From contig JAVJWO010000134.1 of the NCBI GenBank assembly GCA_040222015.1, positions 39,035 through 103,034 on the forward strand: 64,000 bases of DNA, in the 5' to 3' direction. Of the stretch, positions 1 through 59,792 are shown piece after piece; the stretch's first letter is position 1; each line of letters begins with the position of its first letter. The stretch is from Coleofasciculus chthonoplastes F2-STO-03 (GTDB lineage Bacteria > Cyanobacteriota > Cyanobacteriia > Cyanobacteriales > Coleofasciculaceae). The notes under the pieces are model-generated. The model made no database searches and was not told where the DNA came from. It saw nothing but the letters and a program-made list of their open reading frames with translations. The position numbers and the translations under genes are program-made.

Positions 1-26
1 GGATTTCCGATGAAATTATTGTCGTA

Positions 27-149
27 GTAGTGCGAGCATCTTGCTCGCTATCCAATCAGCATCTTGCTCGCTATCCAATCAGCATCTTGCTCGCTATCCA
101 ATCAGCATCTTGCTCGCTATCCAATCAGCATCTTGCTCGCTATCCAATC
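27..149 (+). repeat. REP hairpin (GTAGTGCGAGCATCTTGCTCGC, 27-48) followed by five identical 23-bp tandem units AGCATCTTGCTCGCTATCCAATC (35-149)
   Basis: Read directly from sequence; GCGAGC/GCTCGC stem preceded by GTAG. Confidence 0.92.
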
Positions 150-322
150 TGATCAAATTTCCGCAAAAACACGAATGCGAATCGCTGCGCCGATAGGTTA
201 GGCTCGATAAAGACCATCTGGGATGCTCTCTCACTCTACCCTAACCGAGTAGCGGGAGATGCGATCGCGGTTTGGATGGGACACTACCGGATTGTGTGGA
301 TTAGTGCTGAGGCAAAACTGAG

Positions 323-3300
323 ATGATGTTGCCATCTATATTTAACACCTGTAGTCCCAGAGGGGAAATACAAGCCGGGGAGCTTTCGGTAGACTTGTTT
401 GCCGCAAAAGTCCGTCCTGTGGTGGAAGGGAATGCTCCTTTAGTTTATCAAGATGCCAATGTCTTCTTTGCTAATACCTTCCCTACAGATGGGATTAAAA
501 CCCTGATTCGGGAAGTATTTGGGCGCTTAAGTGGTGCCGCAACGGGTTCTCCGGTGATTCGCTTGGAGACGAGCTTTGGCGGTGGTAAAACCCACGATGA
601 GATTGCGATTTGGCATATCTGTAAGCAAGGGCGGCGGATTGACGGATTAGACCGTTTTGCTGACTTGACATTAATCCCAGACTATGCAGTGCAGGTGGCG
701 GCGATTGATGGTAGAGACTTAGACCCAGAAAATGGGGTACATCATGGGAGTACGGGGATTACCACGTTTACCCTTTGGGGAGAAATCGCTTATCAAATCG
801 GCGGAATTGCAGGCTATCAGCTTTTGCGCGGTTCGGATACCAGTGGGATTAGTCCGGGGACATCGGTACTGGAACGGCTGACGGATGGGAAACCCACTGT
901 GATTATTTTGGATGAAATTGCCCGGTATCTGAGAGCGGCGCAAGGGAAAGTCGTGGGACAGAGTACCCTGTCTAAGCAGGTGGTGGCGTTTCTGTTCTCG
1001 TTGATGGATTTGGCGGCGTCGGTTAATCATTTAATTCTGGTCTATTCTCTAGCATCGGCGTCGGATACGTTTAGTGAAGAAACCACAGAACTGAACGAAG
1101 TGATTCGCGCCTCGGCAAGGCAAGAGCGGGTATTGAGTCCGAGTACGGATGTTGAGATTTATAATATCGTCAAGCAACGGTTATTTGAAAGCGTGAGTGC
1201 CAAAGCCTCAGAGGATGCTGCGTCTGAATATTTAAGTGCCTATCGTGCTAGTCGGATTAATTTGCCCGATGGCTGCCAAGATGCTCCCTATGCTAACGCG
1301 ATCGCATCGAGTTATCCGTTTCATCCTGAATTATTTAATTTACTCACTAAGAAGATTGCTTCAATCCCCGAATTTCAGCGCACTAGGGGCGCATTGCGGT
1401 TATTTGCTATGGTGGTGCGTTATCTGTGGCAAAATCCTACGGAATGGATACCGATGATTCATACTCACCATATCCCGGTGGGGGTGGAGGCGAAGGTGAC
1501 GGATGAGTTAACCTCTCGCTTGCAGCGTCCCCTGATGCGGAATCCGATTCAGGCGGATATTTATAATGCTTCTGGGAGAGAAGCTTATGCTCAAGTCCAG
1601 GATCAACAGTGGGTGGTTGCAGGGAAACCCCCATTCTCAACATGGGTAGCGCGGACTATATTTTTACATTCTCTCACCCAAGGGATTTCATCGGGGATTC
1701 GACGGGCGGAGTTAAATTTATCCTTACTGACGCCGGGACTGGAGATTGGGTTTGTAGACCAGGTATTGGATAAACTGACCGCTGTGGCGTGGTATTTAGA
1801 TAACGACCCGATTACCTCAATTGCTCGGTTTAAAGAAGAACCCTCAATTAATAAGATTATCACCGAAGAGAAAGAGCAGGTGGGCAAGATTCAGGCAAAA
1901 GAAGACTTGCGATCGCGCCGAGATAGCATTTTTGCCTCAAAAGCTTTTAAGCTAGTTATACCGGACTCCCCTGCCGATGTGGATGATGTCCCTGATCCGA
2001 TTGCCCTGTGTGTGATTGATTTCGACAATGTGATGGTATCCTCATCCCAAGACCCTGCACCCTATCTGATTGAACAGATTTTTGACAATACAGGAGAGTC
2101 GGGCAAATTCCGCACCTATCGCAATCGCCTCCTATTTTTAGTCGCCAATAAGCACGAACTCGAACGCACTGTTGACCTGGCTAGGGAACATAAGGGGATT
2201 AAGAATATTCTGGCAAGTCCCAATCGGTTAGAAGATATCTCCGAAAGTCAGCAGAAACAACTGCGCCAGAAAGATGGCGAGATTGACTTGAGGTTACGAA
2301 TCGCTATAACCAATACCTACCGCCATCTATTTTATCCGGCGAATGACCCAGTAAAAGCGCCCAAGGGGTTGATACATTACACCTTACCTGCCCAAGATTC
2401 CAGTACGGTAAAAGGGAAGAGTAATCAGCAGGAAGTAATCCTTAAAGCACTCCGGGACTGCGGTAAAGTGAGGGCGGAAGTAGAAGACCAGGCGAAACCC
2501 TTTGCCCCTGCTTATATTTTGCAGAAGGTTTGGCTTTCTGGCATCGACCATTGGACAACGAAAAGCCTACGAGAGGAATTTGCTAAGAATCTGGCGCTAA
2601 ATATGCCCATTGAAGCCGAAATTCCCAGGCTGCGGGAGACGGTAAAACGGGGATTAGTCGAGGGACAGTGGGATATGAAGGTGGGAGAGCGGTTATTTAT
2701 TAAAGCAGATGGAAATTTGACCCCACCCGAACCGATTGAGTTCTCGGAACGGATGGTACTCTATCGCCGAGGAATTTTACAACCCCCGAAACCCAAGGAA
2801 GTCGAACTCAGCGCCCAGGTAATGTCAAGTACGGAAGCGACGAAACCCGTGCGGGTGCGGTGGAAGGCGAGGGGGGCGTTAACGGTGTCTCTGTATCAAG
2901 ATGAAAGGGTGATAAGGGAAGACTTTCGTCCCTCGGATGAGTATGAGGGAAGTATTTCTCAGACGACAGTGTTTAAGATAGTCGCAGATTATGGCAATGG
3001 CGAGGTTGAACAGCGACAGACGCAGGTAATGTTAACCGGGGAGTTTACCTATGGTACAGGGGGTTCGAGGCGGAGTTCCACGGTTAGCGAACCGAAGGGG
3101 ATATTTCAGGTTAAACCCGAACAGATTGACCTAGAGGGTACACCCAATAGCGTATTTACCGCGTTGAGCGATCGCTGTAGTGATGATAAAGTACAGGGAA
3201 TTCAATGGCTAGAACTGTCCGTTGACCAAGTAATGGATTACCGCAAGCTAGGAACAGCGCTACCTTTGCTGAGTCGTTTTCCACTACAAATTGACCAGCG

Positions 3301-3550
3301 CGTGATGATTCAGACGGGGGACTTTACTCGGTTAGAATACCAGGGTTCAGTGCGAGGTTTCCAGAGTTTTTTCTCTACTATCAATACTTTACTTAACGCG
3401 CCCAGTGTGCAAGCAGATGTGAATTTGAAACTCACGTTTGAGTTTGATAACGCAGTGTCGCCAGGGGGTTCAGAAATCAATATAATCAAACAGGCGCTTT
3501 TACGTAATCCCGTAGAACGTCTCTATTTGAGTGCAAGGGTAAGGTATTAA
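323..3550 (+). CDS. DUF499-family AAA+ ATPase of a restriction-like defence system
   Basis: 1075 aa; Walker A TSFGGGKTH, Walker B IILDE, SYPFHPEL and FQRTRGALR motifs typical of DUF499; gene order with methylase and helicase. Confidence 0.88.
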   Translation: MMLPSIFNTCSPRGEIQAGELSVDLFAAKVRPVVEGNAPLVYQDANVFFANTFPTDGIKTLIREVFGRLSGAATGSPVIRLETSFGGGKTHDEIAIWHICKQGRRIDGLDRFADLTLIPDYAVQVAAIDGRDLDPENGVHHGSTGITTFTLWGEIAYQIGGIAGYQLLRGSDTSGISPGTSVLERLTDGKPTVIILDEIARYLRAAQGKVVGQSTLSKQVVAFLFSLMDLAASVNHLILVYSLASASDTFSEETTELNEVIRASARQERVLSPSTDVEIYNIVKQRLFESVSAKASEDAASEYLSAYRASRINLPDGCQDAPYANAIASSYPFHPELFNLLTKKIASIPEFQRTRGALRLFAMVVRYLWQNPTEWIPMIHTHHIPVGVEAKVTDELTSRLQRPLMRNPIQADIYNASGREAYAQVQDQQWVVAGKPPFSTWVARTIFLHSLTQGISSGIRRAELNLSLLTPGLEIGFVDQVLDKLTAVAWYLDNDPITSIARFKEEPSINKIITEEKEQVGKIQAKEDLRSRRDSIFASKAFKLVIPDSPADVDDVPDPIALCVIDFDNVMVSSSQDPAPYLIEQIFDNTGESGKFRTYRNRLLFLVANKHELERTVDLAREHKGIKNILASPNRLEDISESQQKQLRQKDGEIDLRLRIAITNTYRHLFYPANDPVKAPKGLIHYTLPAQDSSTVKGKSNQQEVILKALRDCGKVRAEVEDQAKPFAPAYILQKVWLSGIDHWTTKSLREEFAKNLALNMPIEAEIPRLRETVKRGLVEGQWDMKVGERLFIKADGNLTPPEPIEFSERMVLYRRGILQPPKPKEVELSAQVMSSTEATKPVRVRWKARGALTVSLYQDERVIREDFRPSDEYEGSISQTTVFKIVADYGNGEVEQRQTQVMLTGEFTYGTGGSRRSSTVSEPKGIFQVKPEQIDLEGTPNSVFTALSDRCSDDKVQGIQWLELSVDQVMDYRKLGTALPLLSRFPLQIDQRVMIQTGDFTRLEYQGSVRGFQSFFSTINTLLNAPSVQADVNLKLTFEFDNAVSPGGSEINIIKQALLRNPVERLYLSARVRY

Positions 3551-3978
3551 TGCAAGAATTTCAACTGCGGGTGGTTCCCACGGATAACAATAATTTCGCC
3601 TTGGAGTTGTATCAATGTGCCTATAAAAAGGCGGGGGAAAAAAAGCGACCAGCGGCTAAACGAATTGGGCGGTTGAAGGGTAAGGCGTTGGTGCAGGCGA
3701 GATCGGTGATTTATGAGGTTTTAAAAGCGAATAATTATGACCCGAAAACTCTATCACACAAGCGGCAATCTCCCTATATTTTAAGTGAGGAATCGGGGGT
3801 TAATTTGGCGCTGTTATTTCAAGCTTTGCAACCGCTATCAAAACCGGAACGCATTGCGAATATCAGTGCCGGAGTTACAGCGATGAGTAATGAAGAGGCA
3901 CATTATTGGTTCGCCAAAATTAATAATGGCAAGCGAAGTCCGGCGTTAAAGGCAATGCGAGTGTTATTAGGGGATTAG
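3550..3978 (+). CDS. small protein at the DUF3780 position of the restriction-like system
   Basis: 142 aa, coupled (TAATG) to the ATPase; C-terminal EEAHYWF...ALKAMRVLL resembles DUF3780-type ends; family call is mainly positional. Confidence 0.6.
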   Translation: MQEFQLRVVPTDNNNFALELYQCAYKKAGEKKRPAAKRIGRLKGKALVQARSVIYEVLKANNYDPKTLSHKRQSPYILSEESGVNLALLFQALQPLSKPERIANISAGVTAMSNEEAHYWFAKINNGKRSPALKAMRVLLGD

Positions 3979-4299
3979 GAGTGTGAGCATCCTGCTCACG
4001 TATATGCACAAGAGTCAATCTGCCAATGCCAATCTGCCAATGCCAATCTGCCAATGCCAATCTGCCAATGCCAATCTCCCAATGCCAATCTCCCAATGCC
4101 AATCTCCAACTATCAATCTCCCAATGCCAATCTCCCAATGCCAATCTCCCAATGCCAATCTCCAACTATCAATCTCCCAATGCCAATCTCCAACTATCAA
4201 TCTCCCAATACCAATCTCCCAATGCCAATCTCCCAATACCAATCTCCCAATGCCAATCTCCAACTATCAATTTCCAAGCGAGCAAGATGCTCGCACTAC
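3978..4299. repeat. REPIN-like pair: left REP GGAGTGTGAGCATCCTGCTCAC (3978-3999), heptamer array CAATCTC/CCAATGC/CAACTAT (~4016-4270), right REP GCGAGCAAGATGCTCGCACTAC (4278-4299)
   Basis: Inverted REP copies with a compensatory stem change (GTGAGC/GCTCAC) enclosing a tandem array. Confidence 0.88.
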
Positions 4300-4373
4300 A
4301 GACAGATATAAGCATTTTGTTTATTATAGAAGTTAAAAACTGAAAAATTAGAAAAATTCAAGGAATCTTAGTC

Positions 4374-5036
4374 ATGTTACAATATGATCCGAAATTACGC
4401 CTGCCAACAAGTGCTGAATTGCCTTGTTCTGATGATACGCCTGTGGATAACGAGAATCAAAATTTTATTCCAAACTTACTGTTATTTTTACTAAAGTTTA
4501 TTTGGGGGAAGCGAACAGATTGGTTTTTTGGGGTGGATATGGGAATTTATCACACCACAGGAGTTAGTCCGTTGGTTCCTGTAGTTCCCGATGGCTTTTT
4601 GAGTTTAGGGGTTGAACGTCATCGGCAAGGTAGACAGAGGAAAAGCTATGTAGTTTGGGAAGAAAATGGTGTTGTTCCAATTTTTGTGTTAGAGGTGGCA
4701 TCGCGAACACCGGGGGGAGAATACGATACGAAGATGGGAATTTATGCCAACTTGGGAGTTTTATATTATCTGGTTTATAACCCTGAATATTGGCAGCGAG
4801 ATAGGCATCAATCTTTTGAGGTTTACCGCTTAGTAAATGGAGAGTATCAACTGCAAATTGGTGAACCTTACTGGATGCCAGAAGTTGGCTTAGGGATTGG
4901 ACGTGCGCCTTACCAAGATGGTGAACTAGAGATTGAAGCATTGTATTGGTACAATCAGCAGGGTGTCCGTTATTTAACACCTGAAGAACAATTAGCCCGT
5001 TATCAAGAACGTTTTGGCGAATTACCGGAGGATTAA
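4374..5036 (+). CDS. Uma2 (DUF820) family PD-(D/E)xK endonuclease-fold protein
   Basis: LPCSDDTPVDNE, VVPDGFLSLG, VLEVAS, YDTKMGIY motifs of cyanobacterial Uma2 proteins. Confidence 0.88.
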   Translation: MLQYDPKLRLPTSAELPCSDDTPVDNENQNFIPNLLLFLLKFIWGKRTDWFFGVDMGIYHTTGVSPLVPVVPDGFLSLGVERHRQGRQRKSYVVWEENGVVPIFVLEVASRTPGGEYDTKMGIYANLGVLYYLVYNPEYWQRDRHQSFEVYRLVNGEYQLQIGEPYWMPEVGLGIGRAPYQDGELEIEALYWYNQQGVRYLTPEEQLARYQERFGELPED

Positions 5037-5089
5037 AATTTCTTCAAGTCGCAGATTCATAATTCGTAGTGCGTTCGCGTAGCGTGCGC

Positions 5090-5111
5090 GTAGTGCGAGC
5101 ATCTTGCTCGC
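5090..5111 (+). repeat. REP hairpin immediately upstream of RAYT
   Basis: GTAGTGCGAGCATCTTGCTCGC, 12 bp before the ATG. Confidence 0.9.
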
Positions 5112-5123
5112 GATGGGAGTAAG

Positions 5124-5573
5124 ATGAAATTCAAAAAACAACTTCCTCAATTAGAAATCCCTAAAGGCAGATACTTCGTTACCTTCGTGACGTGGGAAAG
5201 ACTAGAACTAACTCCAGAAGCTCGACAGGTTGTGCTAGATGCTTGCAGTTTTTTTCACAATCAACGATATCAGATATTTACTGGAGTTATCATGCCAGAT
5301 CACGTACATCTGTTGATTCAGCCTTTTCTCAAAACGGAGACAGAATTTTGGTCAATTGGGAGTATTTTGCATAGCATCAAAAGTTATAGCGCCAAACAAA
5401 TTCCTCAAGTGATGCGACATATTGGCAAGGTTTGGCAAGATGGAAGATATGATAAGCTGATGAGGGATGAGAAAGAATTCGAGCAGGCATGGGAGTATAT
5501 TAGACAAAATCCGGTTAAGGCTGGATTATCAAAGACTCCGGAAGATTATCCTTTCTTTTGGGAGATATTTTGA
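5124..5573 (+). CDS. REP-associated tyrosine transposase (RAYT / TnpA-REP, Y1 HUH family)
   Basis: YFVTFVT, HUH motif MPDHVHLL, VWQDGRYD, catalytic-Tyr motif EYIRQNPVKAGL; flanked on both sides by GTAG/GGAG hairpins. Confidence 0.9.
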   Translation: MKFKKQLPQLEIPKGRYFVTFVTWERLELTPEARQVVLDACSFFHNQRYQIFTGVIMPDHVHLLIQPFLKTETEFWSIGSILHSIKSYSAKQIPQVMRHIGKVWQDGRYDKLMRDEKEFEQAWEYIRQNPVKAGLSKTPEDYPFFWEIF

Positions 5574-5574
5574 A

Positions 5575-5993
5575 GGAGTGCGAGCATCTTGCTCGCTACC
5601 TATAATTTAATTAGAGCTCGCTACCTAATAATTAGAGCTCGCTACCTAATAATTAGAGCTCGCTACCTAATAACTAGAGTTCGTGACCTAATAATTAGAG
5701 CTTGCTGCATCTTGTACACTACCGATGATTTACAGCATCTTACTCAGAAGGGAGCATGTCACCTTTGTCGGTTAGACCCTTGGAACGTAGGCGTGACGCG
5801 CAGCGATAGCGACGTAAGGAGCGTCAACCTTCTCGTACTCCTTTGGAGTTCCCGAAGGGTAGAGTAACCCAACGAGAGCAGGCTAACTTGGACATTTTGT
5901 GCCAACCTGATAGGCTCCCTACTCAGAAAGCCAGCGTCCAAACCCTTATCGGTTAACAATCTTAGTCAATAGCGAGCGAGACGCTCGCACTAC
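5575..5993. repeat. REPIN-like pair: left REP 5575-5596, ~4 x 21-bp units GCTCGCTACCTAATAATTAGA (5616-5699), ~200-bp cargo, right REP GCGAGCGAGACGCTCGCACTAC (5972-5993)
   Basis: Read directly from sequence. Confidence 0.85.
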
Positions 5994-6033
5994 CATAAAA
6001 AATATACCCTTTAATTTCTGTACAATTTAACCC

Positions 6034-9000
6034 ATGACTACCCCTAACCGCCCCAAAGTGTTCATTGAAAAAATCATGCCTGTGGAGTTATTAAACAAGC
6101 AGGTATATTACGAGAATGGGGGAAATCCATTCAAGGGTTTACATCGTTGGTATTCGCGCAAACCTTTGTCATTTAGCCGCGCTAGTGTTTTGGCGTCGCT
6201 GTTACCTGCTGATATTTCCATGGATGAGTTTGAATATCTGTTGGGATTAGAGAGACGCCAGTACAGAAGTAAAGAGGTAAGGCTATACAAAACACCGCCA
6301 ACGTCAGAACGGATTCAGCAGGTACATGATTTGTGTGAGAAGGTTTGGGGAAAGCGGACTCCTACTGTGTTGGATGCGTTTGCAGGGGGTGGGAGTATTC
6401 CCTTTGAGGCGGCGCGGTATGGGTTGAATGTGCTGGCGTCGGATTTGAATCCGGTGGCGGTGGTGACGATGAAGGCGGCGATGGAATATCCTCTCAAGTT
6501 TGGTCCCGATTTGCAGCAGGATATTGATAAGTGGGTGAAGTGGGTAGGGGATGAGGCGAAGAAGCGATTGGCTGAGTTTTTTCCGTCTTTGGAAGGGGAA
6601 AGGGTACAGAATTATTTATGGGCGCATACGGTGGTTTGTCCAAGTTGTGAGTCGGTGGTGCCGTTGAGTCCAAATTGGTGGTTGAGTAAGACGAGTAATT
6701 ATGCAGGAAAAGGGAAAGAAAGGAAAGTTACCAGTGATTGGTATGCGGTGAAGCCAATTCCGAATCCTGAGAAGAAGCGGGTTGATTTTGAGTTGATTAA
6801 GGGAAGGAAGGGGAAGGGTAAAACGATTATTTATGAGGATAATTCGGATAATAACGTAGTGGGAGCGTCTCGCTCCCTTACCTCTCCCGGTAGCTCCCTT
6901 ACCTCTCCCGGTAGCTTCCTTACCTCTTCCGACAGCAAACAGGATGAAAGGATTAGCGAGCAAGATTTGGGGAGAGGATGTAGCGAGCAAGATGCTCGCA
7001 CTCCCCATATTAATCGCAAATTGGAATATGATCCAGATACTACAACAACCCTGAGCAGAGGTGTTGGTAAATGTCCCAATTGTGGAAGTGTCATTGAAGA
7101 TGAATCAATTAAAGCCTATTCATCTGTTAATAATTTGGGACATCAAATTTACGCTGTAGCTTATAAAAAGGGGAAATCAAATCTATATTTTCGGCTACCT
7201 GATCAAATTGATTTAGATGGACTTGAAAATGCTCAATTAGCACTTAAACAGAAGTATGCTGATTTGACTGTTGCGAATCTAATTCCTAGTGAACCAACGA
7301 GTACAGGTTTACATGATTCCCCTCGAAATTATGAATATGGTTTGCGACAATACGAAGACTGTTTTAATGCTCGTCAGCTTCTAACCCTTGTCACCTATGT
7401 AGAAATTATCAACGAGGCAAAGTCAAAGCTACAGGCTGAGTATGAGCCAGAGAAAGCAGAGGCGATTAGCACTTATTTAGCTTTGGTTTTAGATAGATGC
7501 ATTGATGCTAATTGTCGATTAGTTATTTATAATGCAGCCAGAGCTTGTATTCAAAAGGCTTCAACACAACACGCATTAAACTTAATGTGGAACTATCCAG
7601 AGGTAAATGGAGCAACAGAACTTTGGCAAGCGTGTCAAGAAGAAGCAGCTAGAGACTACACAAAACTTTGCTCTTTATTCGGAACCAAACCCCACTCAAT
7701 CGGCTTACCTGGAATCGAACACTACGACCCAAAATCCATCCAAATAGAAGCAGCATCAGCCGATAGCCTCTTCCACATCCCCGATAACTCCATAGACGCC
7801 ATTATCACAGATCCTCCCTACTATTCCACAATCCAATACGCCGAACTCTCAGACTTCTTCTACGTCTGGATGAAACGCACCCTCGGCGACATTTTCCCCG
7901 AAATCTTTCTAACCGAACTCACCGACAAAGACAGAGAAGCCGTCGCCAACCCCTCCCGCTTCCGCAACATGGGGATATCCGCCGACGAACTCGCCAACCA
8001 AGACTACGAAGCGAAAATGGCACTCGCCTTTAGCGAATATTACCGTGTCCTGCGAGATGACGGCGTAATGACGGTACAATTCAACCACAAAGACTCCGGC
8101 GCATGGGATGTCCTGGCAAAATCCCTCATCGATGCAGGCTTCGAGATTACCGCATCTTGGGCAGTCAGCACCGAAAACCCCCAAAACCTGCACCAAGCCA
8201 AGAAAAACTCCGTCTCCAGTACCGTCCTTTTAGTCTGCCGCAAACGTGACCCCAACGCCGAACAAGCTTGGTGGGATGACTTGCGCCCCGAAGTCGCTAA
8301 CCTCGTAGAACAACGCGCCCCCGAATTTGAAGCCAACGACATCACCGGAATTGACCTCTATTTAAGCGCCTTTGGTCCAGCCTTAAACGTCTTTTCCCGT
8401 TCTCACCCCATCCTCGACAGCAGCGGCGAAGAAGTGCGCCCAGAACAAGCCTTTGCTGAAGCCAGAAAAGCCATCGCCAACTACCGCTTCCGCAAACTCG
8501 TCCAAACCGACACCGCCGGGTTTGACCCCCTCACCCAATGGTATCTCCTAGCTTGGGATGCATTCAAAGCGCGAGAATTCCCCTTCGATGAAGCCCGACA
8601 ACTCGCACTTGCCATCGGTGGCTTCAATGTCACCGACTTAGCCAAAACCCACAAATTACTAGACTCTACCAGTGGCACTTGTAAACTATTATCCCCCCAA
8701 CAGCGCCTGAAAAAACGCGCTTTTTCCGTCAACGAACAAGAATTTTCCGCCCTTTATTTAGTAGACGGACTCCACGCCATCCTCGCTATCTACCAAGAAG
8801 AACAAAGTATCCAACTGGTGCGCCGCTTCATGAAAAATACCGGACTGGTGAGTAATGATATGTTTATGAAAACCATGGAAGTAGCCTTTAAAGTGATTCC
8901 CGATAGCGTTTCAGAACACAAAGCCTTGTTAGACTTGTGGTTAGCGATGGATGAAATTAAGGCAAAAGTGGTGGTGGAACAGATGGAACTGCCGTTAGAG

Positions 9001-9048
9001 GTTGGGCAATTGAGCTTAGATTTAGACAACAGTAGTAATTCCCAATAA
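6034..9048 (+). CDS. DUF1156-type amino-DNA methyltransferase with Zn-ribbon and in-frame REPIN insertion
   Basis: LHRWYSRKPL N-terminus, SAM motif LDAFAGGGSIP, catalytic ITDPPYY, CPSC/CPNC pairs. Confidence 0.9.
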   Translation: MTTPNRPKVFIEKIMPVELLNKQVYYENGGNPFKGLHRWYSRKPLSFSRASVLASLLPADISMDEFEYLLGLERRQYRSKEVRLYKTPPTSERIQQVHDLCEKVWGKRTPTVLDAFAGGGSIPFEAARYGLNVLASDLNPVAVVTMKAAMEYPLKFGPDLQQDIDKWVKWVGDEAKKRLAEFFPSLEGERVQNYLWAHTVVCPSCESVVPLSPNWWLSKTSNYAGKGKERKVTSDWYAVKPIPNPEKKRVDFELIKGRKGKGKTIIYEDNSDNNVVGASRSLTSPGSSLTSPGSFLTSSDSKQDERISEQDLGRGCSEQDARTPHINRKLEYDPDTTTTLSRGVGKCPNCGSVIEDESIKAYSSVNNLGHQIYAVAYKKGKSNLYFRLPDQIDLDGLENAQLALKQKYADLTVANLIPSEPTSTGLHDSPRNYEYGLRQYEDCFNARQLLTLVTYVEIINEAKSKLQAEYEPEKAEAISTYLALVLDRCIDANCRLVIYNAARACIQKASTQHALNLMWNYPEVNGATELWQACQEEAARDYTKLCSLFGTKPHSIGLPGIEHYDPKSIQIEAASADSLFHIPDNSIDAIITDPPYYSTIQYAELSDFFYVWMKRTLGDIFPEIFLTELTDKDREAVANPSRFRNMGISADELANQDYEAKMALAFSEYYRVLRDDGVMTVQFNHKDSGAWDVLAKSLIDAGFEITASWAVSTENPQNLHQAKKNSVSSTVLLVCRKRDPNAEQAWWDDLRPEVANLVEQRAPEFEANDITGIDLYLSAFGPALNVFSRSHPILDSSGEEVRPEQAFAEARKAIANYRFRKLVQTDTAGFDPLTQWYLLAWDAFKAREFPFDEARQLALAIGGFNVTDLAKTHKLLDSTSGTCKLLSPQQRLKKRAFSVNEQEFSALYLVDGLHAILAIYQEEQSIQLVRRFMKNTGLVSNDMFMKTMEVAFKVIPDSVSEHKALLDLWLAMDEIKAKVVVEQMELPLEVGQLSLDLDNSSNSQ
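6856..7004. repeat. in-frame REPIN inside methylase (left REP GTAGTGGGAGCGTCTCGCTCCC 6856-6877; ~3 x 21-bp GCTCCCTTACCTCTCCCGGTA; right REP 6983-7004)
   Basis: Encodes VVGASRSLTSPGSSLTSPGSFLTSS...CSEQDARTP; ORF stays open. Confidence 0.88.
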
Positions 9049-9397
9049 TTTATGAAATTCATTTGTAGTGCGAGCATCTTGCTCGCTACAAACCCTGCCG
9101 TTATAGGTTATTCATTTGTAGTGCGAGCATCTGGCTCGCTACAAACCCACATCAATACAGCCCACACCCTGAGCTTAGATTTAGACAACAGTAGTAATTT
9201 CCAATAATTTATGAAATTCATTTGTAGTGCGAGCATCTGGCTCGCTACAAACCCACATCTAATCCTCGATCCAAAAACCCTCCAATCAACCGAAGAACAA
9301 CGTATAATTATTGGTGTCATAACCTGGCAATAATATGTCAACTTCGCCGATATATTTGTCGATTTAATATAAGTAGCGACCAAGATGGTCGCACTAC
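9011..9397. repeat. REP cluster: three left REPs (9065, 9118, 9224), one right REP GCGACCAAGATGGTCGCACTAC (9376-9397), and an ~85-bp duplication of the methylase 3' end (9011-9095 / 9170-9254)
   Basis: Read directly from sequence. Confidence 0.88.
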
Positions 9398-9401
9398 AAA
9401 A

Positions 9402-12400
9402 ATGCAAAACTTACGCAATAAATCCTGGCGCATCAGTTACTCCAGCAACGAAAATAACCCTATTGCTGACTTCTACATCCCCGCCTTAGAATGCGCCGTT
9501 CAATACGATCGCAAATCCGGCTTCTTCAACAGTGCCATATTAAGCAAAGTCGCCCGTGGTTTAGGGGCAATGCTGCACAACGAGGGAAAAATACGGCTGA
9601 TTATGGGCTGTCAGTTTAGCCCCCAAGACTTGCAAGCCATCCAACAAGGTTACGAACTACGGGAAGCTTTACTCACTCGCCTGGATACCGAACTCAACCC
9701 TCCAGAAAACTTCGTCCAACTCAAACATTTTGAGATTCTCAGTTGGCTAGTTGCTAACGGCTACCTGGATATTAAAATTGCTGTCCCCCTCAAAAATAAC
9801 GGCATACCGGAAGAAAGCCAAACCCAACTTGACCCGTATCACATTTTCCATGAAAAAGTTGGTATTTTTATCGATTCTCAAGGCAACCAATTAGCCTTCA
9901 GCGGTTCTAATAACGAATCCCTCAGCGGTTGGGAACGCAATGTCGAATCCTTCCACGTTTACTCTAGCTGGGAAGGTGGGAGAGATTTAGAACGAGTTAA
10001 TGAGGAACTGTTCCGTTTTGAACAACTCTGGAATAATTTAGCCCCCAACGTCCGAATCTTTGAAGTCCCAGAAGCAGTTCGGCAAAAGCTGTTGCGCTAC
10101 ACCCCAGCCACTAAACCCACTTGGAGTAAACAAGCAGAATTCGACAGGAGAACCCTACCGAAAAATGGGGGAGGTGTAGAAAGTCGATCGCCTGAAGGAG
10201 TGCGAGCGTCTCGCTCGCTATATCTTAATAATGGTTCCTTAGACCCTAATAATAGTTCCTTAGACCCTAATAATAGTTCGCTAAACTTGAGAGAGCGCGG
10301 GCAAGATAATGATCGACAAAATAGCAATCACAGCAAAAATAGCGATCGCGGGCAAGATGCCCGCACTACAAATCCCGAACTAACACCTGACCCTGAAACT
10401 AACGGGCAAGATGCCCGCACGACAAATCCCGAACTAACACCTGACCCTGAAACTAACGGGCAAGATGCCCACACGACAAATCCCGAACTAACACCTGACC
10501 CTGAAACTAACGGGCAAGATGCCCACACGACAAATCCCGAACTAACACCTGACCCTGAAACTAACGGGCAAGATGCCCGCACTACAAATCCCAAACTAAC
10601 ACCTGACCCTGAAACTAACGGGCAAGATGCCCACACGACAAATCCCGAACTAACACCTGACGCTGAAACTAACGGGCAAGATGCCCGCACGACAAATCCC
10701 GAACTAACACCTGACGCTGAAACTAACGGGCAAGATGCCCACACGACAAATCCCGAACTAACACCTGACCCTGAAACTAACGGGCAAGATGCCCACACTC
10801 CTGAAGAAATTGAACGAGAACGCCAAGCTTTTTCCCAACTCGCCAACCTGCACAAACACCCCGGCTGCTTGGACTTTTGCCTCAAATCTATTCCGATTAC
10901 CCCCTGGCCACACCAAATAAAAATACTCCGTCAAGTTGCCCAGCAGTTCCCCCGCAGTTTCCTCATTGCTGATGAAGTTGGACTGGGAAAGACAATTGAA
11001 ACAGGTTTAATTCTGCGTTACTTGCTAGTCAGCCAAAAAGTGAAGCGCGTCTTAATCCTCGCCCCTGCCAGTGTGCAACCCCAGTGGCAGGAAGAACTGC
11101 GAGAAAAGTTTAACCTTCACTTCTGGAGTTACGCACAAGGGGGATTAACTGACCCCTATGGAAGCAGTGTATTCCCAAGCAAAAACGAAGGTAGTGGGAG
11201 CATCTTGCTCCCTGGAACTACAAGCGGGGAAATTACACCCAACCGGGAGACTATTCCCAACCGGGAAACTATACCTAGCGGGCAAGATGCCCGCACTACC
11301 AACCCCTGGAATACCAAAGATTTAGTTCTCGCCTCTAGTCATTTGGTGCGCCGTACTGAAAGAATGCAGGAACTTTTAGAGGCTGAAGTTTGGGATTTAG
11401 TGGTGTTAGATGAAGCCCACCATGCACGGCGCAAAAGCCCTCAAGCGCGTAAGGATACCCCAAATCGGCTGCTGGAGTTAATGGGGCAACTCAAAGAAAA
11501 GACACGCGCTTTAGTGCTGCTATCTGCTACCCCAATGCAGATTGACCCAATTGAAGTCTTTGACTTACTCTCCCTCGTAGGGCTTCAGGGGTATTGGTCT
11601 TATGGCGATAACTTCTGTAGTTATTTTTCGACTTTACCAGAACCACCAGACCGCTTCATCCTGGAATTCTGGCAGCAGATGTCGGTAGATTATTTTAAAC
11701 GTGGCGGTAAGTCCTGTTCTCGTTTACAGCAGTACTTGGAGAAACTGGATCGTTTCATCACTTACAAACTGCAAAATGTCTGGAAAGATGGGCAAAAAAT
11801 AGTAAATCCCAGACAATATCTAGCTGACGAACCCTTTATCGCCACATCTAGACAGTACCTCACCGTCAATACTCCCCTCAAAGATTTAATGTTCCGCCAC
11901 ACCCGCGATACTCTACGGCAATACTATCGCTTGGGTTTGCTAGACCGAGATATTCCCCAGCGGGATGTGCGAGACAACGCCATTTCCCTAGAACCGAACC
12001 GGGAAGTCCCCCTCTATCGCGCCGTCAGCGAGTACGTGCGAAACTTCTATCGCCTTGCCCAAAAGCAGGAACGTAAGGCGTTAGGCTTTTTGATGACGCT
12101 GTACCGCAAGCGATTAACTAGCTCATTTTATGCCATTCGCGAATCCTTGCAACGCCGCTTAGATTCTCTGCAGGAAGGGGCGGGTAGTAGTGTTACCAGC
12201 GATGATTTGAGTGATATTGACGAGGCAGATGATGCCGTAATTACTGGTTTGGAATCATTTTTAGAACCCGTAGACCCCAGAGAAATTGAATATCTCGAAG
12301 ACTTGCTGCGTCAGTTTGAAAATACGGGGGAAGATAGCAAATTATCTCATTTAATTGACACTCTGCGCCGGGAATTGATTGAGCGAGAAAGTGCAATTAT

Positions 12401-13262
12401 TTTCACTCAGTATACCGACACGATGGACTATCTGCGGGAGTCACTGCGGCAGCTTTATGGAAGTCAGGTGGCCTGTTACTCCGGACGTGGGGGAGAGTTG
12501 TACCGGGGAAACGACTGGTGCATTTTGCCCAAAGAACTCATCAAACGCCAGTTCCGAGAAGGTGAGATTAAAATTTTACTGTGTACGGAATCGGCATCTG
12601 AGGGCTTGAATCTGCAAACTTGTGGGGTGTTAATCAATTATGATCTGCCCTGGAACCCGATGCGAGTTGAGCAAAGAATTGGACGTTTAGACCGAATTGG
12701 ACAGATTTATCCCACAGTTAAGATTCACAACTTCTATTATGATGGCACAGTAGAGGCGAAGGTATATCGAAAATTGCGCGATCGCATCAATGCTTTTGCT
12801 ACAGTTGTCGGCAACCTGCAACCGATTCTAGCTCAAGTTCCCACGTTTATCGAGCAAGCTGTGATGAGTGCTGATCCCGAAGAAGAAGATGTGTTGATGT
12901 CAGAATTTGAGCAGGTACTCAACACCCCACCCCTGCGTCCGGCTTTAGAAGAAATGATCGCTATGGATGTTGAGGCTGACTTACACGACATCCGCCAACC
13001 CATCCCCCCAACACCTGTTACACCAGAAACCATTGAACAGTTATTCACCACTTCAGCCCGTCTCAAGTCCGATGGTGTCGAGTTTGAACCCTTACGCGAT
13101 CGCATCTGGCAGCTTACCTATCAAGGGCAGCAGTACAATGTTACTTTTTATCCCGAAGTCTTCGATGAAATGCCTTCCCTGCGGCTGATGAGCTTTGGGG
13201 AGCCATTATTTGAACAGTTGCTCAACACCGCTGTAACTGTGACTTGTGCGATCGCGCCTTAA
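9402..13262 (+). CDS. PLD-like nuclease / SNF2 helicase of the restriction-like system, with two in-frame REPIN insertions
   Basis: N-terminal FHEKVGIF...FSGSNNES (HKD-like), ADEVGLGKT, LDEAHH, SATP, SEGLNLQ, EQRIGRLDRIGQ. Confidence 0.9.
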   Translation: MQNLRNKSWRISYSSNENNPIADFYIPALECAVQYDRKSGFFNSAILSKVARGLGAMLHNEGKIRLIMGCQFSPQDLQAIQQGYELREALLTRLDTELNPPENFVQLKHFEILSWLVANGYLDIKIAVPLKNNGIPEESQTQLDPYHIFHEKVGIFIDSQGNQLAFSGSNNESLSGWERNVESFHVYSSWEGGRDLERVNEELFRFEQLWNNLAPNVRIFEVPEAVRQKLLRYTPATKPTWSKQAEFDRRTLPKNGGGVESRSPEGVRASRSLYLNNGSLDPNNSSLDPNNSSLNLRERGQDNDRQNSNHSKNSDRGQDARTTNPELTPDPETNGQDARTTNPELTPDPETNGQDAHTTNPELTPDPETNGQDAHTTNPELTPDPETNGQDARTTNPKLTPDPETNGQDAHTTNPELTPDAETNGQDARTTNPELTPDAETNGQDAHTTNPELTPDPETNGQDAHTPEEIERERQAFSQLANLHKHPGCLDFCLKSIPITPWPHQIKILRQVAQQFPRSFLIADEVGLGKTIETGLILRYLLVSQKVKRVLILAPASVQPQWQEELREKFNLHFWSYAQGGLTDPYGSSVFPSKNEGSGSILLPGTTSGEITPNRETIPNRETIPSGQDARTTNPWNTKDLVLASSHLVRRTERMQELLEAEVWDLVVLDEAHHARRKSPQARKDTPNRLLELMGQLKEKTRALVLLSATPMQIDPIEVFDLLSLVGLQGYWSYGDNFCSYFSTLPEPPDRFILEFWQQMSVDYFKRGGKSCSRLQQYLEKLDRFITYKLQNVWKDGQKIVNPRQYLADEPFIATSRQYLTVNTPLKDLMFRHTRDTLRQYYRLGLLDRDIPQRDVRDNAISLEPNREVPLYRAVSEYVRNFYRLAQKQERKALGFLMTLYRKRLTSSFYAIRESLQRRLDSLQEGAGSSVTSDDLSDIDEADDAVITGLESFLEPVDPREIEYLEDLLRQFENTGEDSKLSHLIDTLRRELIERESAIIFTQYTDTMDYLRESLRQLYGSQVACYSGRGGELYRGNDWCILPKELIKRQFREGEIKILLCTESASEGLNLQTCGVLINYDLPWNPMRVEQRIGRLDRIGQIYPTVKIHNFYYDGTVEAKVYRKLRDRINAFATVVGNLQPILAQVPTFIEQAVMSADPEEEDVLMSEFEQVLNTPPLRPALEEMIAMDVEADLHDIRQPIPPTPVTPETIEQLFTTSARLKSDGVEFEPLRDRIWQLTYQGQQYNVTFYPEVFDEMPSLRLMSFGEPLFEQLLNTAVTVTCAIAP
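10197..10801. repeat. in-frame REPIN plus 54-bp tandem array in the helicase linker (left REP 10197-10218; 21-bp units; right REP 10348-10369; 8 x 54-bp units 10349-10780 plus partial ninth)
   Basis: Encodes (GQDA[R/H]TTNPELTPDPETN)x8; each unit begins with a REP hairpin CGGGCAAGATGCCC. Confidence 0.92.
11191..11299. repeat. second in-frame REPIN in helicase (left REP GTAGTGGGAGCATCTTGCTCCC; 2 x 18-bp CCCAACCGGGARACTATW; right REP 11278-11299)
   Basis: Encodes GSGSILLPGTTSGEITPNRETIPNRETIPSGQDARTT between Walker A and DEAH motifs. Confidence 0.88.
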
Positions 13263-13299
13263 GCTATTCGGCATTTAAACTTTATTTCCACCAACCTAC

Positions 13300-14325
13300 T
13301 TACAAATGAGGGAATAACTTCAAAAAAGATTGCCGATAAAAATTTAAAACTCGTTGAGTATAAGCCGCCGTTGAACCCTGATTATATTGCTGGGGATCAC
13401 CCGTCATCCACCAAGCCGCAGCCCGCTGTACCGCCACTGTCTCATTATTACCACTCGCCTCATACTGTTTATTAAGCACATCTCCCATCACGCAAACTAA
13501 AATAGTACGGGCAGTCACCGGACTCGCGGCAAAATCGGCGGGTGTTAGTTCCTCTCCAATACATTGATTGGACCAACGGGGAATATTTTCTGGTTTAATT
13601 TGCCAATCACTGTAAAGTCCATCATTTTCTATTCCCGTTTGCGGTGCTGCCCGTCGTAGTGCTTCCACTAAAGCGGCGACTTTTGTATCAGAAATCGCGT
13701 TATTGGTTGAGGAACGGGCGGCAGCTTGAGGCTGAGAGGCGGCTGACGATTGACTTTCCGTCGGTTGAGAGGATGATGCTGGTTTTGCCGCCGAGGGAGT
13801 CGTGGTGGGTTGAGCGGGAGTTGCAGATTGTTGCGTCTGGGGATTACGGCGTTGCTGTTGGTAATTTTTCAGCACATTCTGAATGTAAGTGTAGGTGTAA
13901 GAGTTTTCAGGAATGCTATTATATTGACTCCCATCCCCAGTCATCCACCAAGCCGCTGCCCGTTGTATTGCCACCGACTCATTATTATTACTGGCACGAA
14001 ACTGCTCATTCAATACATCCCGCATCACGCACACCAAGATAGTCCGCGCCGTTACCGGACTGGCTTCAAAATCAGCAGGTGACAGTTCTCGTCCAATACA
14101 TTGCTTTGACCATCGGGGAATGTTACCCGGTTTAATTTGCCAGTCACTATAGAGTCCATCATCTGCCCTTCCCGTTTGCGGTGCGGCTAGTCGCAAAGCT
14201 TCCACCAGCGCTGAAACTTGAGCATCAGAGACTTGAGCGTATACCGGGGAACTCCAGAGTCCCAGAGAAAGTAACGCGGTACTCAGTAGGACTCGTTGAA
14301 CTGGTTTAATGAATTTGAAACCCAT
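13300..14325 (-). CDS. exported protein with two copies of a ~125-aa domain joined by a Q/S/P-rich linker
   Basis: Signal-peptide-like N-terminus (..SPVYA); duplicated ALVEALR.AAPQTG..DGLYSDWQIKP.NIPRWS.QCIG..AAAWWMTGD. Confidence 0.8.
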   Translation of the reverse strand: MGFKFIKPVQRVLLSTALLSLGLWSSPVYAQVSDAQVSALVEALRLAAPQTGRADDGLYSDWQIKPGNIPRWSKQCIGRELSPADFEASPVTARTILVCVMRDVLNEQFRASNNNESVAIQRAAAWWMTGDGSQYNSIPENSYTYTYIQNVLKNYQQQRRNPQTQQSATPAQPTTTPSAAKPASSSQPTESQSSAASQPQAAARSSTNNAISDTKVAALVEALRRAAPQTGIENDGLYSDWQIKPENIPRWSNQCIGEELTPADFAASPVTARTILVCVMGDVLNKQYEASGNNETVAVQRAAAWWMTGDPQQYNQGSTAAYTQRVLNFYRQSFLKLFPHL

Positions 14326-26618: not shown

Positions 26619-26721
26619 TAAGCGGTTCGGCATTTAAACCATAATGTCAAGAATTGCAAAATCCTTGTAGTGCGAGCATCTTGCTCGCTACCCATTCCCA
26701 ATTTAAATGCGTGACAGCTTA
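26619..26721 (+). mobile_element. MITE (TAAGCGGTTCGGCATTTAAA...TTTAAATGCGTGACAGCTTA) carrying a REP at 26667-26688
   Basis: Imperfect TIR; homologous copy at 30036-30163. Confidence 0.75.
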
Positions 26722-30038: not shown

Positions 30039-30163
30039 GCTGTTCGGCATTTAAACCTTAATGTCAATAATGACGAAATCCTTGTAGTGCGTTAAGCGAA
30101 GCCATGCCGCAGGCTTTGCATCTTGCTCGCTACTAATACCCAATTTAAATGCATGACAGCTTA
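30036..30163 (+). mobile_element. second copy of REP-carrying MITE; REP interrupted by a 26-bp insert TTAAGCGAAGCCATGCCGCAGGCTTT
   Basis: Alignment by eye with 26619-26721; supplies the GH9 stop codon. Confidence 0.75.
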
Positions 30164-50709: not shown

Positions 50710-50723
50710 AAATAATAAATTCT

Positions 50724-50781
50724 TGTTCCCTGTTCCCTGTTCCCTGTTCCCTGTTCCCTGTTCCCTGTTCCCTGTTCCCTG
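50724..50781 (+). repeat. heptamer tandem repeat (TGTTCCC)x8, STRR type
   Basis: Read directly from sequence. Confidence 0.9.
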
Positions 50782-50785
50782 ACAA

Positions 50786-52390
50786 ATGACAAACTACGCA
50801 ATTGATTTTGGCACAAGCAATACTGTCGTAACTCGCTGGAACGCCGCCACGGGAGAAGCGGAAACCGTCAACCTACCCGGATTATCAATACAACTTGCCC
50901 AAAATCCGCCCCTGATTCCCAGTTTGGTCTATGTTGAGGATGCCCAAAAGGGTAATGTTATTATCGGTAAAACCGTGCGCGATCGCGGCTTAGATCTTAC
51001 CACCGATCCTCGCTTTTTCTCCAGTTTTAAACGGGGGATAGGCTCACAGATTCAGGGATTTTTGCCGGAATTGGATGAACAAACTATCAGTTTTGAGCAA
51101 ATTGGACAATGGTTCCTCAGCCAAATTATCGCCAAACTCTCCCCCTCCCCCACAGACACGATTGAATCCTTAATTCTTACCGTACCCGTCGATAGTTTTG
51201 AGGCGTATCGCCACTGGTTAACAGGGGTTTGCCAATCCTTACCCGTGGAACAACTGCGGATACTGGATGAACCAACCGCCGCCGCTTTGGGGTATGGTGT
51301 AGCAGAAGGTGAAACCCTCCTCGTGGTGGATTTTGGTGGGGGGACTTTAGATTTATCCCTGGTGCAGTTAAATCAAGAGGTACAAACGGGAACAAAGCCC
51401 CTGGGGTTTATCCTTAAATGGGGGGAAAAAGTCTTAGGTGAACGTTCGGGACAAAAGCCCAAAATAGCGCGGGTACTCGCCAAAGCAGGGCAAAACTTAG
51501 GCGGTTCAGATATTGATAACTGGCTGGTGGATTATTTTGCCCAAACCCAGGGAATTTCGCGATCGCCCTTAACCACGCGATTGGCGGAACGACTGAAAAT
51601 TAAGCTATCTGCAGAACCGACAGCAACAGAAGTTTACTTTAATGATGAAACACTAGAGAGTTATGAACTGAATCTGGATCGGCAAACCTTTGAAACCATT
51701 TTAACGGATCACCAATTCTTTGATAACCTGAATCAGAGAATGACCCAACTCCTGCAACAAGCACGGCGTAGTGGCATCGAAGTCGCAGACATTGATGCGG
51801 TATTATTAGTGGGGGGAACCGTAAAAATTCCCGCCGTACAAAGTTGGGTGAAGCAATATTTTAACGCCGAAAAGATTCGTTCCCGCAAACCCTTTGAAGC
51901 CATCGCCCAAGGCGCATTACAATTAGCTCAAGGCATAGAAGTCCAAGACTTCCTCTACCATAGCTATGGGATTCGCTACTGGGATCGACGGAATAACTGT
52001 CACAATTGGCATTCCATTATTAAAGCCGGACAACCCTATCCGATGAGTAATCCCGTGGAATTAGTATTAGGGGCGTCTGTAGAGAATCAACCGAGTATTG
52101 AGTTAATTGTCGGAGAATTAGGCGCAGAAACCGGAGCAACCGAGGTATACTTTGAAGGCGATCGCTTAATCACGCGCCAACTCGGTGGCGGCAAAACCGC
52201 AGTACAACCCTTAAATGATCGCGACGGTGCCAGAACCATTGCCCAGCTTACACCCCCAGCAAATCCGGGGCGCGATCGGATTAAACTCAAGTTTTCAGTG
52301 GATCGCGATCGCGCTTTACGATTAACAGTAGACGACTTACTCACCGAGCAAACCGTCTTACAAAACCAGATAGTCGCTCAATTAAGTTAA
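50786..52390 (+). CDS. Hsp70-family (DnaK-like) protein
   Basis: AIDFGTSNT, DEPTAAALGY, VDFGGGTLD, LVGGTVKIP. Confidence 0.9.
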   Translation: MTNYAIDFGTSNTVVTRWNAATGEAETVNLPGLSIQLAQNPPLIPSLVYVEDAQKGNVIIGKTVRDRGLDLTTDPRFFSSFKRGIGSQIQGFLPELDEQTISFEQIGQWFLSQIIAKLSPSPTDTIESLILTVPVDSFEAYRHWLTGVCQSLPVEQLRILDEPTAAALGYGVAEGETLLVVDFGGGTLDLSLVQLNQEVQTGTKPLGFILKWGEKVLGERSGQKPKIARVLAKAGQNLGGSDIDNWLVDYFAQTQGISRSPLTTRLAERLKIKLSAEPTATEVYFNDETLESYELNLDRQTFETILTDHQFFDNLNQRMTQLLQQARRSGIEVADIDAVLLVGGTVKIPAVQSWVKQYFNAEKIRSRKPFEAIAQGALQLAQGIEVQDFLYHSYGIRYWDRRNNCHNWHSIIKAGQPYPMSNPVELVLGASVENQPSIELIVGELGAETGATEVYFEGDRLITRQLGGGKTAVQPLNDRDGARTIAQLTPPANPGRDRIKLKFSVDRDRALRLTVDDLLTEQTVLQNQIVAQLS

Positions 52391-52895: not shown

Positions 52896-52970
52896 CGTTT
52901 TCTAGTATTAATGGTAAATCAACATATCTTATTGTTTCATGTTTGACTGTCACTAAAGAGGGAATTAAGT

Positions 52971-54292: not shown

Positions 54293-54334
54293 GAATTTAC
54301 AAATGACGAATGACGATCCACAATGTCCACCTAC

Positions 54335-59787: not shown

Positions 59788-59792
59788 AATAA

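Follow-up and report, generated by a model that had tools for sequence, protein, structure and literature searches.

We analyzed a 64-kb stretch of DNA from the cyanobacterium Coleofasciculus chthonoplastes F2-STO-03 (contig JAVJWO010000134.1, positions 39,035 to 103,034), called the window below; all coordinates are those of the window, and its genome is referred to as G000. Within the first 13.3 kb of the window, six genes with intact open reading frames (ORFs) all run along the + strand. They make up a predicted anti-phage operon of the Hma, 'restriction-like' (RL) or Type-2 BR kind together with the gene for a REP-associated tyrosine transposase (RAYT), and the cognate repetitive extragenic palindromic (REP) hairpins occupy every intergenic gap of the operon. 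An initial annotation of this DNA had proposed that the RAYT and its REPs may act as a dedicated local diversifier or recombination device for the defense genes rather than as a passenger, and we examined this proposal by comparison with related loci and genomes.

The operon begins with a DUF499 AAA+ ATPase (HmaC-like, 1075 amino acids (aa), positions 323–3550; PADLOC HmaC 331 bits and DUF499 152 bits, Pfam PF04465 106 bits), followed by a small DUF7680 protein (142 aa, 3550–3978; 161 bits), a Uma2-family (PD-(D/E)XK-like) accessory gene (220 aa, 4374–5036), and the RAYT gene (149 aa, 5124–5573). Downstream lie a DUF1156 N6-adenine methylase (HmaB-like, 1004 aa, 6034–9048; PADLOC HmaB 261 bits, Pfam DUF1156 34.7 bits and N6_N4_Mtase 29.7 bits), whose DPPY motif can be read directly at approximately nucleotides (nt) 7807–7818, and a PLD(HKD)-SNF2 helicase (1286 aa, 9402–13262; PADLOC PLD_Helicase 249 bits) with a PbeA match over aa 4–245 (244 bits) and the Pfam domains SNF2-rel_dom and Helicase_C. 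The PADLOC names (HmaC/DUF499, HmaB/DUF1156_MTase and PLD_Helicase) agree with the original assignment of the locus to the 'restriction-like' DUF499/DUF1156/PLD-helicase kind. The gene order given in the initial annotation also stands, except that the small gene, taken there for DUF3780, encodes DUF7680, which occupies the place of DUF3780 in described systems; DUF3780 had no match in the locus even at E≤10, and the small protein had no PADLOC match. The NCBIfam anti-phage equivalog cut-offs NF042962, NF042963 and NF042964 were not reached (210 of 1200, 244 of 1000 and 360 of 1100 bits), and by sequence comparison the locus is a distant variant of a Type-2 BR-like system, outside the named equivalogs. 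Like the Type-2 BR and Gao 'restriction-like' systems, related to Hma, that are described in parts of PMC12839542 and PMC11232893, it encodes an ATPase, a small standalone protein, a DUF1156 methylase with a DPPY motif, and an HKD-helicase, in this order on one strand, with accessory genes within the operon. It differs from Type-2 BR systems in having DUF7680 in place of DUF3780, in the scores of its three large proteins, which are far below the equivalog cut-offs, and in holding a RAYT and REPs. Sections of PMC11232893 also describe the insertion of other genes into Hma operons and show HmaA activity for a Halomonas protein with a different nuclease domain.

The RAYT passes the NCBIfam model NF047646 (REP_Tyr_transpos; 108.6 bits against a cut-off of 80) and Pfam Y1_Tnp (30.7 bits against 23). 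In a phmmer alignment to E. coli TnpAREP (PDB 4ER8), the HUH and Y-I-x-x-N-P-V-K motifs, the latter with the catalytic tyrosine, are in register, pairing PDHVHLL with PEHMHCI and EYIRQNPVKAG with DYIYINPVKHG. The motifs DHVH, WQ and YIRQNP fit the subclass 2.7 consensus in the part of Quentin et al. (2018; PMC6006769) that concerns it. A tblastn search of G000 returned a single close copy of the gene (100% identity), the next best match being 34% identical over 94 aa; four other RAYT-like genes in the genome are 26–34% identical to it. By these features the gene encodes a genuine REP-associated transposase, and its own REPs lie on both sides of it, at 5090 and 5575. The whole REPtron module (5037–6033, +) consists of a REP (5090–5111), the RAYT gene, a second REP (5575–5596), a 21-nt × 4.7 tandem array (5608–5706), a piece of another dispersed repeat (approximately 5750–5920), and a REP on the minus strand (5972–5993). 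Pieces of that other repeat, between the REPs behind the RAYT (5700–5975), have partial matches on at least eight other contigs.

A search with the pattern G[TG]AGT, a 6-nt stem, a 3–7 nt loop and the complementary stem found 17 REPs in the window, all but one of which fall within the island. The island copies start at 27, 3978, 4278, 5090, 5575, 5972, 6856, 6983, 9065, 9118, 9224, 9376, 10197, 10348, 11191 and 11278, exactly the 16 positions listed in the initial annotation, and the remaining copy stands alone at 26667–26688 (+). The annotation had counted two REPs in the remaining 50 kb; that at 26667 holds, and the other, at 30084, is only partly a copy, the REP at 30084–30130 being split by an inserted piece of approximately 25 nt (GTAGTGCG ... 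GCATCTTGCTCGC). Because the same split-REP composite recurs in a relative (locus L029 of genome G002, approximately 11360–11410), a second small element may target REPs. The 22-nt REP folds into a 7-bp stem capped by a loop of 3 nt, for which the DNA folding energy is −8.2 kcal/mol; none of 200 shuffled sequences was as stable. Among 156 REP copies collected with at most 4 mismatches and no requirement for a hairpin, the TCT loop is near-invariant, and the changed stem cells comprise 45 compensatory, 26 G-T and 18 unpaired cases.

At each REP group a tandem array is seeded on a half-REP, with periods of 23, 14, 21, 21, 21, 54 and 18 nt. The left edge of the island is formed by a REP (27–48) and a 23-nt × 5 array derived from its 3′ half (together 27–149, +), and homology to the flanks of same-genus genomes stops approximately 5–10 nt before window position 1. 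An inverted REP pair (3978+, 4278−; 3978–4299) surrounds a 14-nt × 17.6 array. The intergenic cluster between methylase and helicase (9011–9397) contains REPs at 9065+, 9118+, 9224+ and 9376− and an 85-nt tandem duplication (9011–9095 and 9170–9254, 98% identical) that takes in the 3′-terminal 38 nt of the methylase gene along with the stop codon and the REP after it, and that has left an orphan methylase gene tail. The inverted pairs (3978/4278, 5575/5972, 6856/6983, 10197/10348 and 11191/11278) are candidate REPINs, that is, inverted REP doublets at a short, fixed distance that can fold into one long hairpin; they are 87–400 nt apart and array-filled, with differing stems, and folding gave two separate hairpins. 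Tight back-to-back REP doublets are present in genome G432.

Across G000 (7.72 Mb in 219 contigs), 275 hairpins fit a generic pattern and 107 of these belong to the family of the RAYT; at up to 2 mismatches the family count is 130. Simple arithmetic gives approximately 0.18 REPs per 13.3 kb if the 107 copies were spread evenly. Among 5385 sliding windows of 13.3 kb, the island holds 16, the maximum on any other contig is 5, and the median is 0, so the local enrichment for which the initial annotation had suggested genome-wide mapping is confirmed. The island copies are not all independent, since some arose by tandem duplication, and G000 is a draft assembly in which repeats at contig ends may be under-counted. 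Flanks at a similar distance from the RAYT carry no REPs. Outside the locus, 88 of 91 REPs are not covered by an ORF of at least 200 aa, compared with coverage of 71% of random sites; the three exceptions, candidate intragenic REPs elsewhere in G000 (contigs C22, C125 and C52), lie at ORF extremes and hence were not counted as internal. A second, distantly related helicase–methylase–ATPase (Hma-like) system lies outside the window on contig C41 of G000 (approximately 50183–60026); it is 23–31% identical to that of the window, and no REP of the RAYT's family is listed on this contig.

To place the RAYT in a wider context, we compared the best 80 of 179 loci confirmed in a scan for DUF7680 relatives, and 8 of these carry a RAYT that is 70–89% identical to that of the window. 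In six Nostocales loci (L078, L088, L094, L095, L102 and L103) it lies between DUF7680 and the methylase, in L035 it stands behind DUF7680 and Uma2 with the methylase missing, and in L051 it is upstream of DUF7680. In a separate RAYT survey of 401 genomes sampled from the phylum, in which 1.5-kb flanks were inspected, RL genes adjoin 4 of 5 RAYT relatives of at least 74% identity and none of the 20 at 55–69% identity. A 33-RAYT IQ-TREE phylogeny places the window's RAYT in a clade of 13 (support 89/89), of which eight are RL-adjacent, four lie at RL deletion scars and one is on a 2-kb contig; outside this clade, 0 of 20 RAYTs are RL-adjacent. The association across homologous loci for which the initial annotation had suggested a test is thus found, and on this sequence evidence it is real, old and undescribed in the literature searched. 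The RAYT tree agrees in topology with the ATPase tree, the split between the window family and Nostocales being mirrored. Mapping RAYT presence onto the ATPase tree (6 present, 53 absent, 6 unknown) needs at least five changes, so the RAYT has often been lost or exchanged.

The hairpins recur together with the transposase. RAYT-bearing loci contain 52 REP matches in 110 kb versus 36 in 1137 kb of other loci, the latter mostly in three Floridaenema loci and one short contig. The REP family of the window, in its three stem variants, occurs in every RAYT-bearing locus, and in the RAYT-bearing full loci REPs stand after the RAYT and after the methylase in 6/6 cases and after DUF7680 in 4/6. In five Nostocales genomes the totals are 16, 7, 33, 59 and 61 REPs, of which 11, 4, 9, 10 and approximately 6, respectively, lie in the RL locus. 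Because this layout is found again in distantly related cyanobacteria, the repeat system is likely a resident of the island that slowly remodels it. The Floridaenema loci (L036, L038 and L039) have three tandem REPs between ATPase and DUF7680 and more downstream, and no RAYT was found within the 17–20 kb fetched. In a Calothrix genome the RL-borne RAYT (L094, identical with L137, 10130–10576) has an in-frame TAA stop, and a 2-kb contig of the same genome carries a second RAYT (L114) with 76% identity to that of the window.

One way to account for a single RAYT clade and a 22-base hairpin staying with the operon across cyanobacterial orders, coding sequence included, is that RAYT and hairpins form a built-in recombination organ of the defense island. 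The RAYT would nick single-stranded REPs, which surround the genes and flag the border of the methylase's specificity region, and would so promote the trading of gene segments or accessory genes among islands, in the manner of an integron or shufflon with its cassettes. We consider this distinctly unlikely.

Six of the 16 island REPs are internal to the methylase and helicase ORFs, in frame and stop-free, at three places. In the methylase, a 60-aa in-frame insertion (6844–7023, +) carries REPs 6856+ and 6983− with a 21-nt × 2.9 array between them. In the helicase, an in-frame insertion of approximately 217 aa in the PLD-SNF2 linker (10167–10817, +) carries REPs 10197+ and 10348− and an array delimited by Tandem Repeats Finder as a 54-nt (18-aa) unit × 8.3 at 10402–10801; the eight derived copies that the initial annotation had noted here are real, half-decayed REPs spaced 54 nt apart. 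The third insertion, an in-frame REP pair (11191+, 11278−; 11191–11299, +), adds approximately 38 aa in the SNF2 N-lobe. The closest orthologous operons (G024, G019, G025 and G035; ATPase identity to G000 59–89%, no ATPase being found in G025) lack methylase aa 271–330, helicase aa 256–472 and approximately 38 aa near 597–633. An AlphaFold2 model of the methylase from a 26-row alignment (mean pLDDT 45.7, pTM 0.33) was too poor for arguments from fold, and the insert residues 270–328, which had the lowest confidence (approximately 24–26) and no secondary structure, were not used as evidence.

An alternative explanation of such a cluster would be that REPs hopped locally and recently, in G000 alone, into an island that is decaying and under no selection. 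Parts of PMC3116915 indeed describe REPIN clusters and tandem REP arrays next to RAYT genes, and a strict REP search of the four closest orthologous loci gave 0 matches. The REP-free flanks, the six intact ORFs and the three insertions kept in frame speak against it, however, as do the same REPs at the same sites in Nostocales loci. The 60-aa methylase insertion in particular is missing in 23 of 26 aligned methylases, where the loop has a fixed length of 28–29 residues, and is common to G000 and the Nostocales loci L095 and L102, which by itself contradicts an event confined to G000. Fossil REPs point the same way: the helicase-linker site has a single decayed copy in G016, G019 and L107 and an intact copy in L095, and a decayed REP lies in the methylase loop of L037. 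Taken together, these observations make recent hopping very improbable.

The shared methylase insertion also bears on what has been maintained. Its flanks (TIIYxDNS ... EYDPDTT) are in the same frame in G000 and L095/L102 and are unique in the genome, and the hairpins are identical at 20–21 of 22 nt, a rare G-C pair that closes the stem being common to them. The intervening spacer is unalignable, and the synonymous sites of the RAYT are saturated over the same distance (proportion of synonymous differences, pS, 0.74). Because the hairpins are conserved against this background, they are themselves under constraint. Palindromic repeats in frame in open ORFs (Rickettsia palindromic elements, RPEs, and intragenic REPs) and REP clusters encoding 43–82 aa are reported in parts of Di Nocera et al. 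(2013; PMC3733652). Compared with the cases in those parts, the insertions of the window lie in genes beside the cognate transposase, one reaches approximately 217 aa via an 18-aa repeat, and one is common by descent to distant loci with hairpins conserved and spacer not. At the helicase site equivalent to 11191–11299, a different insert, also in frame and containing short tandem repeats of its own, is present in G016 (L032/L035), from which it follows that this helicase loop accepts insertions repeatedly.

Relatives without the operon are particularly informative about the relation of the RAYT to the defense genes. In four genomes of the same genus (G001, G002, G005 and G007), the defense genes are gone, yet an intact RAYT (91–92% aa identity) remains at the same chromosomal site between the same flanks. 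The order is flank, ATPase scar, REPs, RAYT, helicase 3′ end, flank. The ATPase scar is 39 nt long (codons approximately 19–31) and matches window positions 378–416 at 37/39 nt, and the helicase scar, also 39 nt, spans the stop codon and adjoins the downstream flank. From these two scars it follows that the operon formerly surrounded the RAYT in the four genomes and was removed by deletions. The dN/dS of the RAYT is 0.08–0.11 between these genomes and G000 and 0.04–0.13 between lineages.

Repeat numbers vary widely among relatives. At up to 2 mismatches, the four scar genomes have 123–160 REPs and G024, G019, G035 and G021 have 0. Another four genomes of the genus (G003, G004, G006 and G008) have 45–136 REPs with no close RAYT ortholog found, and GTAATG-type variants are frequent in G008; REPs without a RAYT in these genomes are compatible either with loss of the RAYT followed by decay of the repeats or with a gene that the draft assemblies fail to show. 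G025 has 51 REPs, mostly of a GGGAGC stem variant, and no RAYT relative at E≤0.001 with the window's RAYT as query. G019 has the REP fossil in its helicase and no REP elsewhere in its genome, so either its island was acquired from a genome with REPs or the copy embedded in coding sequence alone outlasted decay.

REPs are involved in rearrangement. In G016, of another genus, the order is ATPase, DUF7680, Uma2, RAYT, helicase, and the methylase has been deleted exactly from the 3′ foot of the REP behind the RAYT to approximately 10 nt before the methylase stop. The tandem arrays on half-REPs vary in copy number among relatives. Public metagenome runs, which consist of assembled contigs of mixed communities and of which the best held at most 34% of sampled words, yielded one contig in which only one base separates 5036 from 6034, a weak indication (one contig, 48-nt side) of an allele that lacks the REPtron; the RAYT-bearing form is present in the same run. 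Most other metagenome joints had short sides (21–54 nt) or landed on REPs and were left unused, and uncovered stretches of the locus are uninformative.

The proposal of a dedicated local diversifier holds that RAYT and REPs exchange specificity regions, change linker lengths and capture accessory genes. The part of it that survives is the old link to the RAYT and the presence of REPs at rearrangements, namely the G016 deletion end and the variable arrays. Several features of the island fit it. The in-frame methylase insertion sits at the 5′ edge of a hypervariable region with a mosaic signal adjoining; the 18-aa repeat has expanded to 8.3 copies in the helicase linker; the methylase tail has been duplicated with its REP; the Uma2 gene and the RAYT are bracketed by REPs; and metagenome contigs, which are from mixed strains and so weigh little, show alternative joints in the methylase variable region. 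The hypervariable region, aa approximately 335–575, is approximately 50% identical between methylases that are 90–96% identical elsewhere and is probably the target-recognition part of the enzyme. It is equally variable in loci free of REPs, however: identities of the N-terminal, variable and C-terminal parts are 90/50/96% for G024/G019 and 91/52/95% for L097/L096, both REP-free pairs. The hypervariability was the same in REP-free and REP-bearing loci.

No silent or spare cassettes were found in 1–13400, where all repeats of at least 30 nt are REP-linked arrays or the 85-nt repeat of methylase tail and REP. The interval between DUF7680 and the methylase is a slot of variable content, measuring approximately 300 bp in G025 and G035 and holding a helix-turn-helix (HTH) and Peptidase_M78 protein with one unannotated ORF in G024 and two unannotated ORFs in G019. 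We dropped a PIN-like label for this cargo, as Pfam finds HTH and Peptidase_M78 in one protein and nothing in the other three. Cargo capture by REPs is unsupported, since loci free of REPs also have Uma2 and other cargo. The observed rearrangements are losses, of the methylase in G016 and of the whole system in the four scar genomes, and not new functional variants, and the RAYT survives without defense genes while its repeats are genome-wide. Specificity-switching restriction-modification systems, such as shufflons and phase-variable methylases, provide a useful comparison: like them, this methylase-bearing defense locus has a recombinase-type gene and repeats near a variable region, but it has no silent cassettes, its variable region varies equally without REPs, and in place of a site-specific recombinase of the tyrosine or serine type it has an HUH single-strand transposase. 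We judge the diversifier proposal quite improbable, and the REPtron is probably not a dedicated diversifier of the defense genes. The claim that the module is dedicated and no passenger is not supported, given a RAYT kept without defense genes, its presence in only 8 of the 80 loci, the equal variability of REP-free loci and the lack of cassettes.

The REPtron could instead be a working accessory of the defense operon, with the REP hairpins tuning transcript stability, termination or DNA topology of the 13-kb operon, or with the HUH nuclease serving as an auxiliary effector or sensor on single-stranded hairpin DNA. The faithfulness of the RAYT clade to the RL system (12/13) would be expected if so, as would REPs at the same positions after the RAYT and after the methylase in 6/6 loci, hairpins conserved while spacers and synonymous sites are not, and a REP family nearly restricted to the island in G431 and G434; auxiliary nucleases within such operons are moreover described in parts of PMC12839542. 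A RAYT that stays intact and under purifying selection where the defense genes are gone is harder to reconcile with such a role, and so are the 53 of 59 evaluable related loci without a RAYT and the spread of REPs to 45–160 copies across the genus. Promoter-like and terminator-like sites in the locus were not above shuffled expectation (24 versus 18.4±4.6 and 18 versus 15.2±4.2), and an Rfam search of 1–13400 found 0 families. The terms transposase, HUH, IS200 and TnpA have 0 occurrences in the main text of the 2026 BR survey (PMC12839542). We regard an accessory role as unlikely.

The reading that we favor, and consider reasonably probable, is that a long-resident REPtron has been filling permissive DNA in and around the operon with its repeats and causing deletions and tandem expansions. 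The RAYT would bind and nick single-stranded REP hairpins and thereby keep and multiply them, preferentially in DNA close to the RAYT gene. Selection for working defense genes would leave only in-frame insertions in loops and linkers, while REPs would serve as break or recombination points that give rise to deletions and to tandem expansions of half-REPs. The operon in whose gaps, loops and linkers the repeats settle would be non-essential but selected, and the RAYT would outlive it. The island may also carry the RAYT and starter REPs into new genomes, where the repeats would then spread; this last step is conjectural.

Several observations sit uneasily with this interpretation. As to the step in which the island acts as a vehicle, a search of 72,556 plasmid records (PLSDB) found no RAYT of the clade at E≤1e-20, and the trees of RAYT and ATPase are in rough agreement with taxonomy, as would equally be expected from vertical descent with losses. 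The RAYT clade is tied almost exclusively to the RL system, in 12 of 13 members with the 13th on a 2-kb contig, a faithfulness that a pure passenger need not have. REPs are nearly confined to the island in two Nostocales genomes (11/16 in G431 and 4/7 in G434). G016 has a RAYT yet its linker REPs have decayed, so the presence of a RAYT does not guarantee upkeep of the hairpins. The 5′ edge of the hypervariable region is where the methylase insertion sits, and over the following 50 aa the protein resembles L102 more than it does the otherwise nearest methylase, that of G024. Constraint on hairpins at fixed sites could, finally, serve the operon and not only the RAYT.

A resident REPtron is in keeping with much of what is known of REPtron/RAYT-REPIN systems such as E. 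coli TnpAREP and the REPINs of P. fluorescens SBW25. As in those systems, hairpins tagged with GT[AG]G stand on both sides of a single-copy HUH-Y1 gene, there are inverted REP pairs, clusters and tandem arrays of REPs adjoin the RAYT, and dispersed copies are mostly extragenic with compensatory stem changes. The RAYT of the window differs from them in lying in a defense operon, to which its clade is tied across cyanobacterial orders, in having REPs at fixed positions, three of them in frame in large genes, and in that nearly all copies are in the island in some genomes. RAYTs are described in parts of PMC5581495 as single-copy, mainly vertically inherited, 'domesticated' and without a fixed neighborhood, their horizontal transfer being only suspected, over long times. 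We found no description of a RAYT in a defense operon in the literature searched, which covered subscription journals thinly and left supplements aside.

The locus thus offers a defined natural case for the host role of RAYTs and for the spread of a RAYT and its REPs to new genomes. The RAYT clade has a fixed address in a defense operon, its repeats are countable (7–16 in two genomes and more than 100 in others), its hairpins are kept inside coding loops, and related genomes without the operon still keep the RAYT. The activity of the RAYT, a possible preference for DNA close to the RAYT gene and any effect on the restriction-like system are all testable here. Two practical points follow for the family of defense systems: methylase and helicase tolerate large in-frame repeat insertions (60, approximately 217 and approximately 38 aa), and REPs are a source of the deletions that erode such defense islands.

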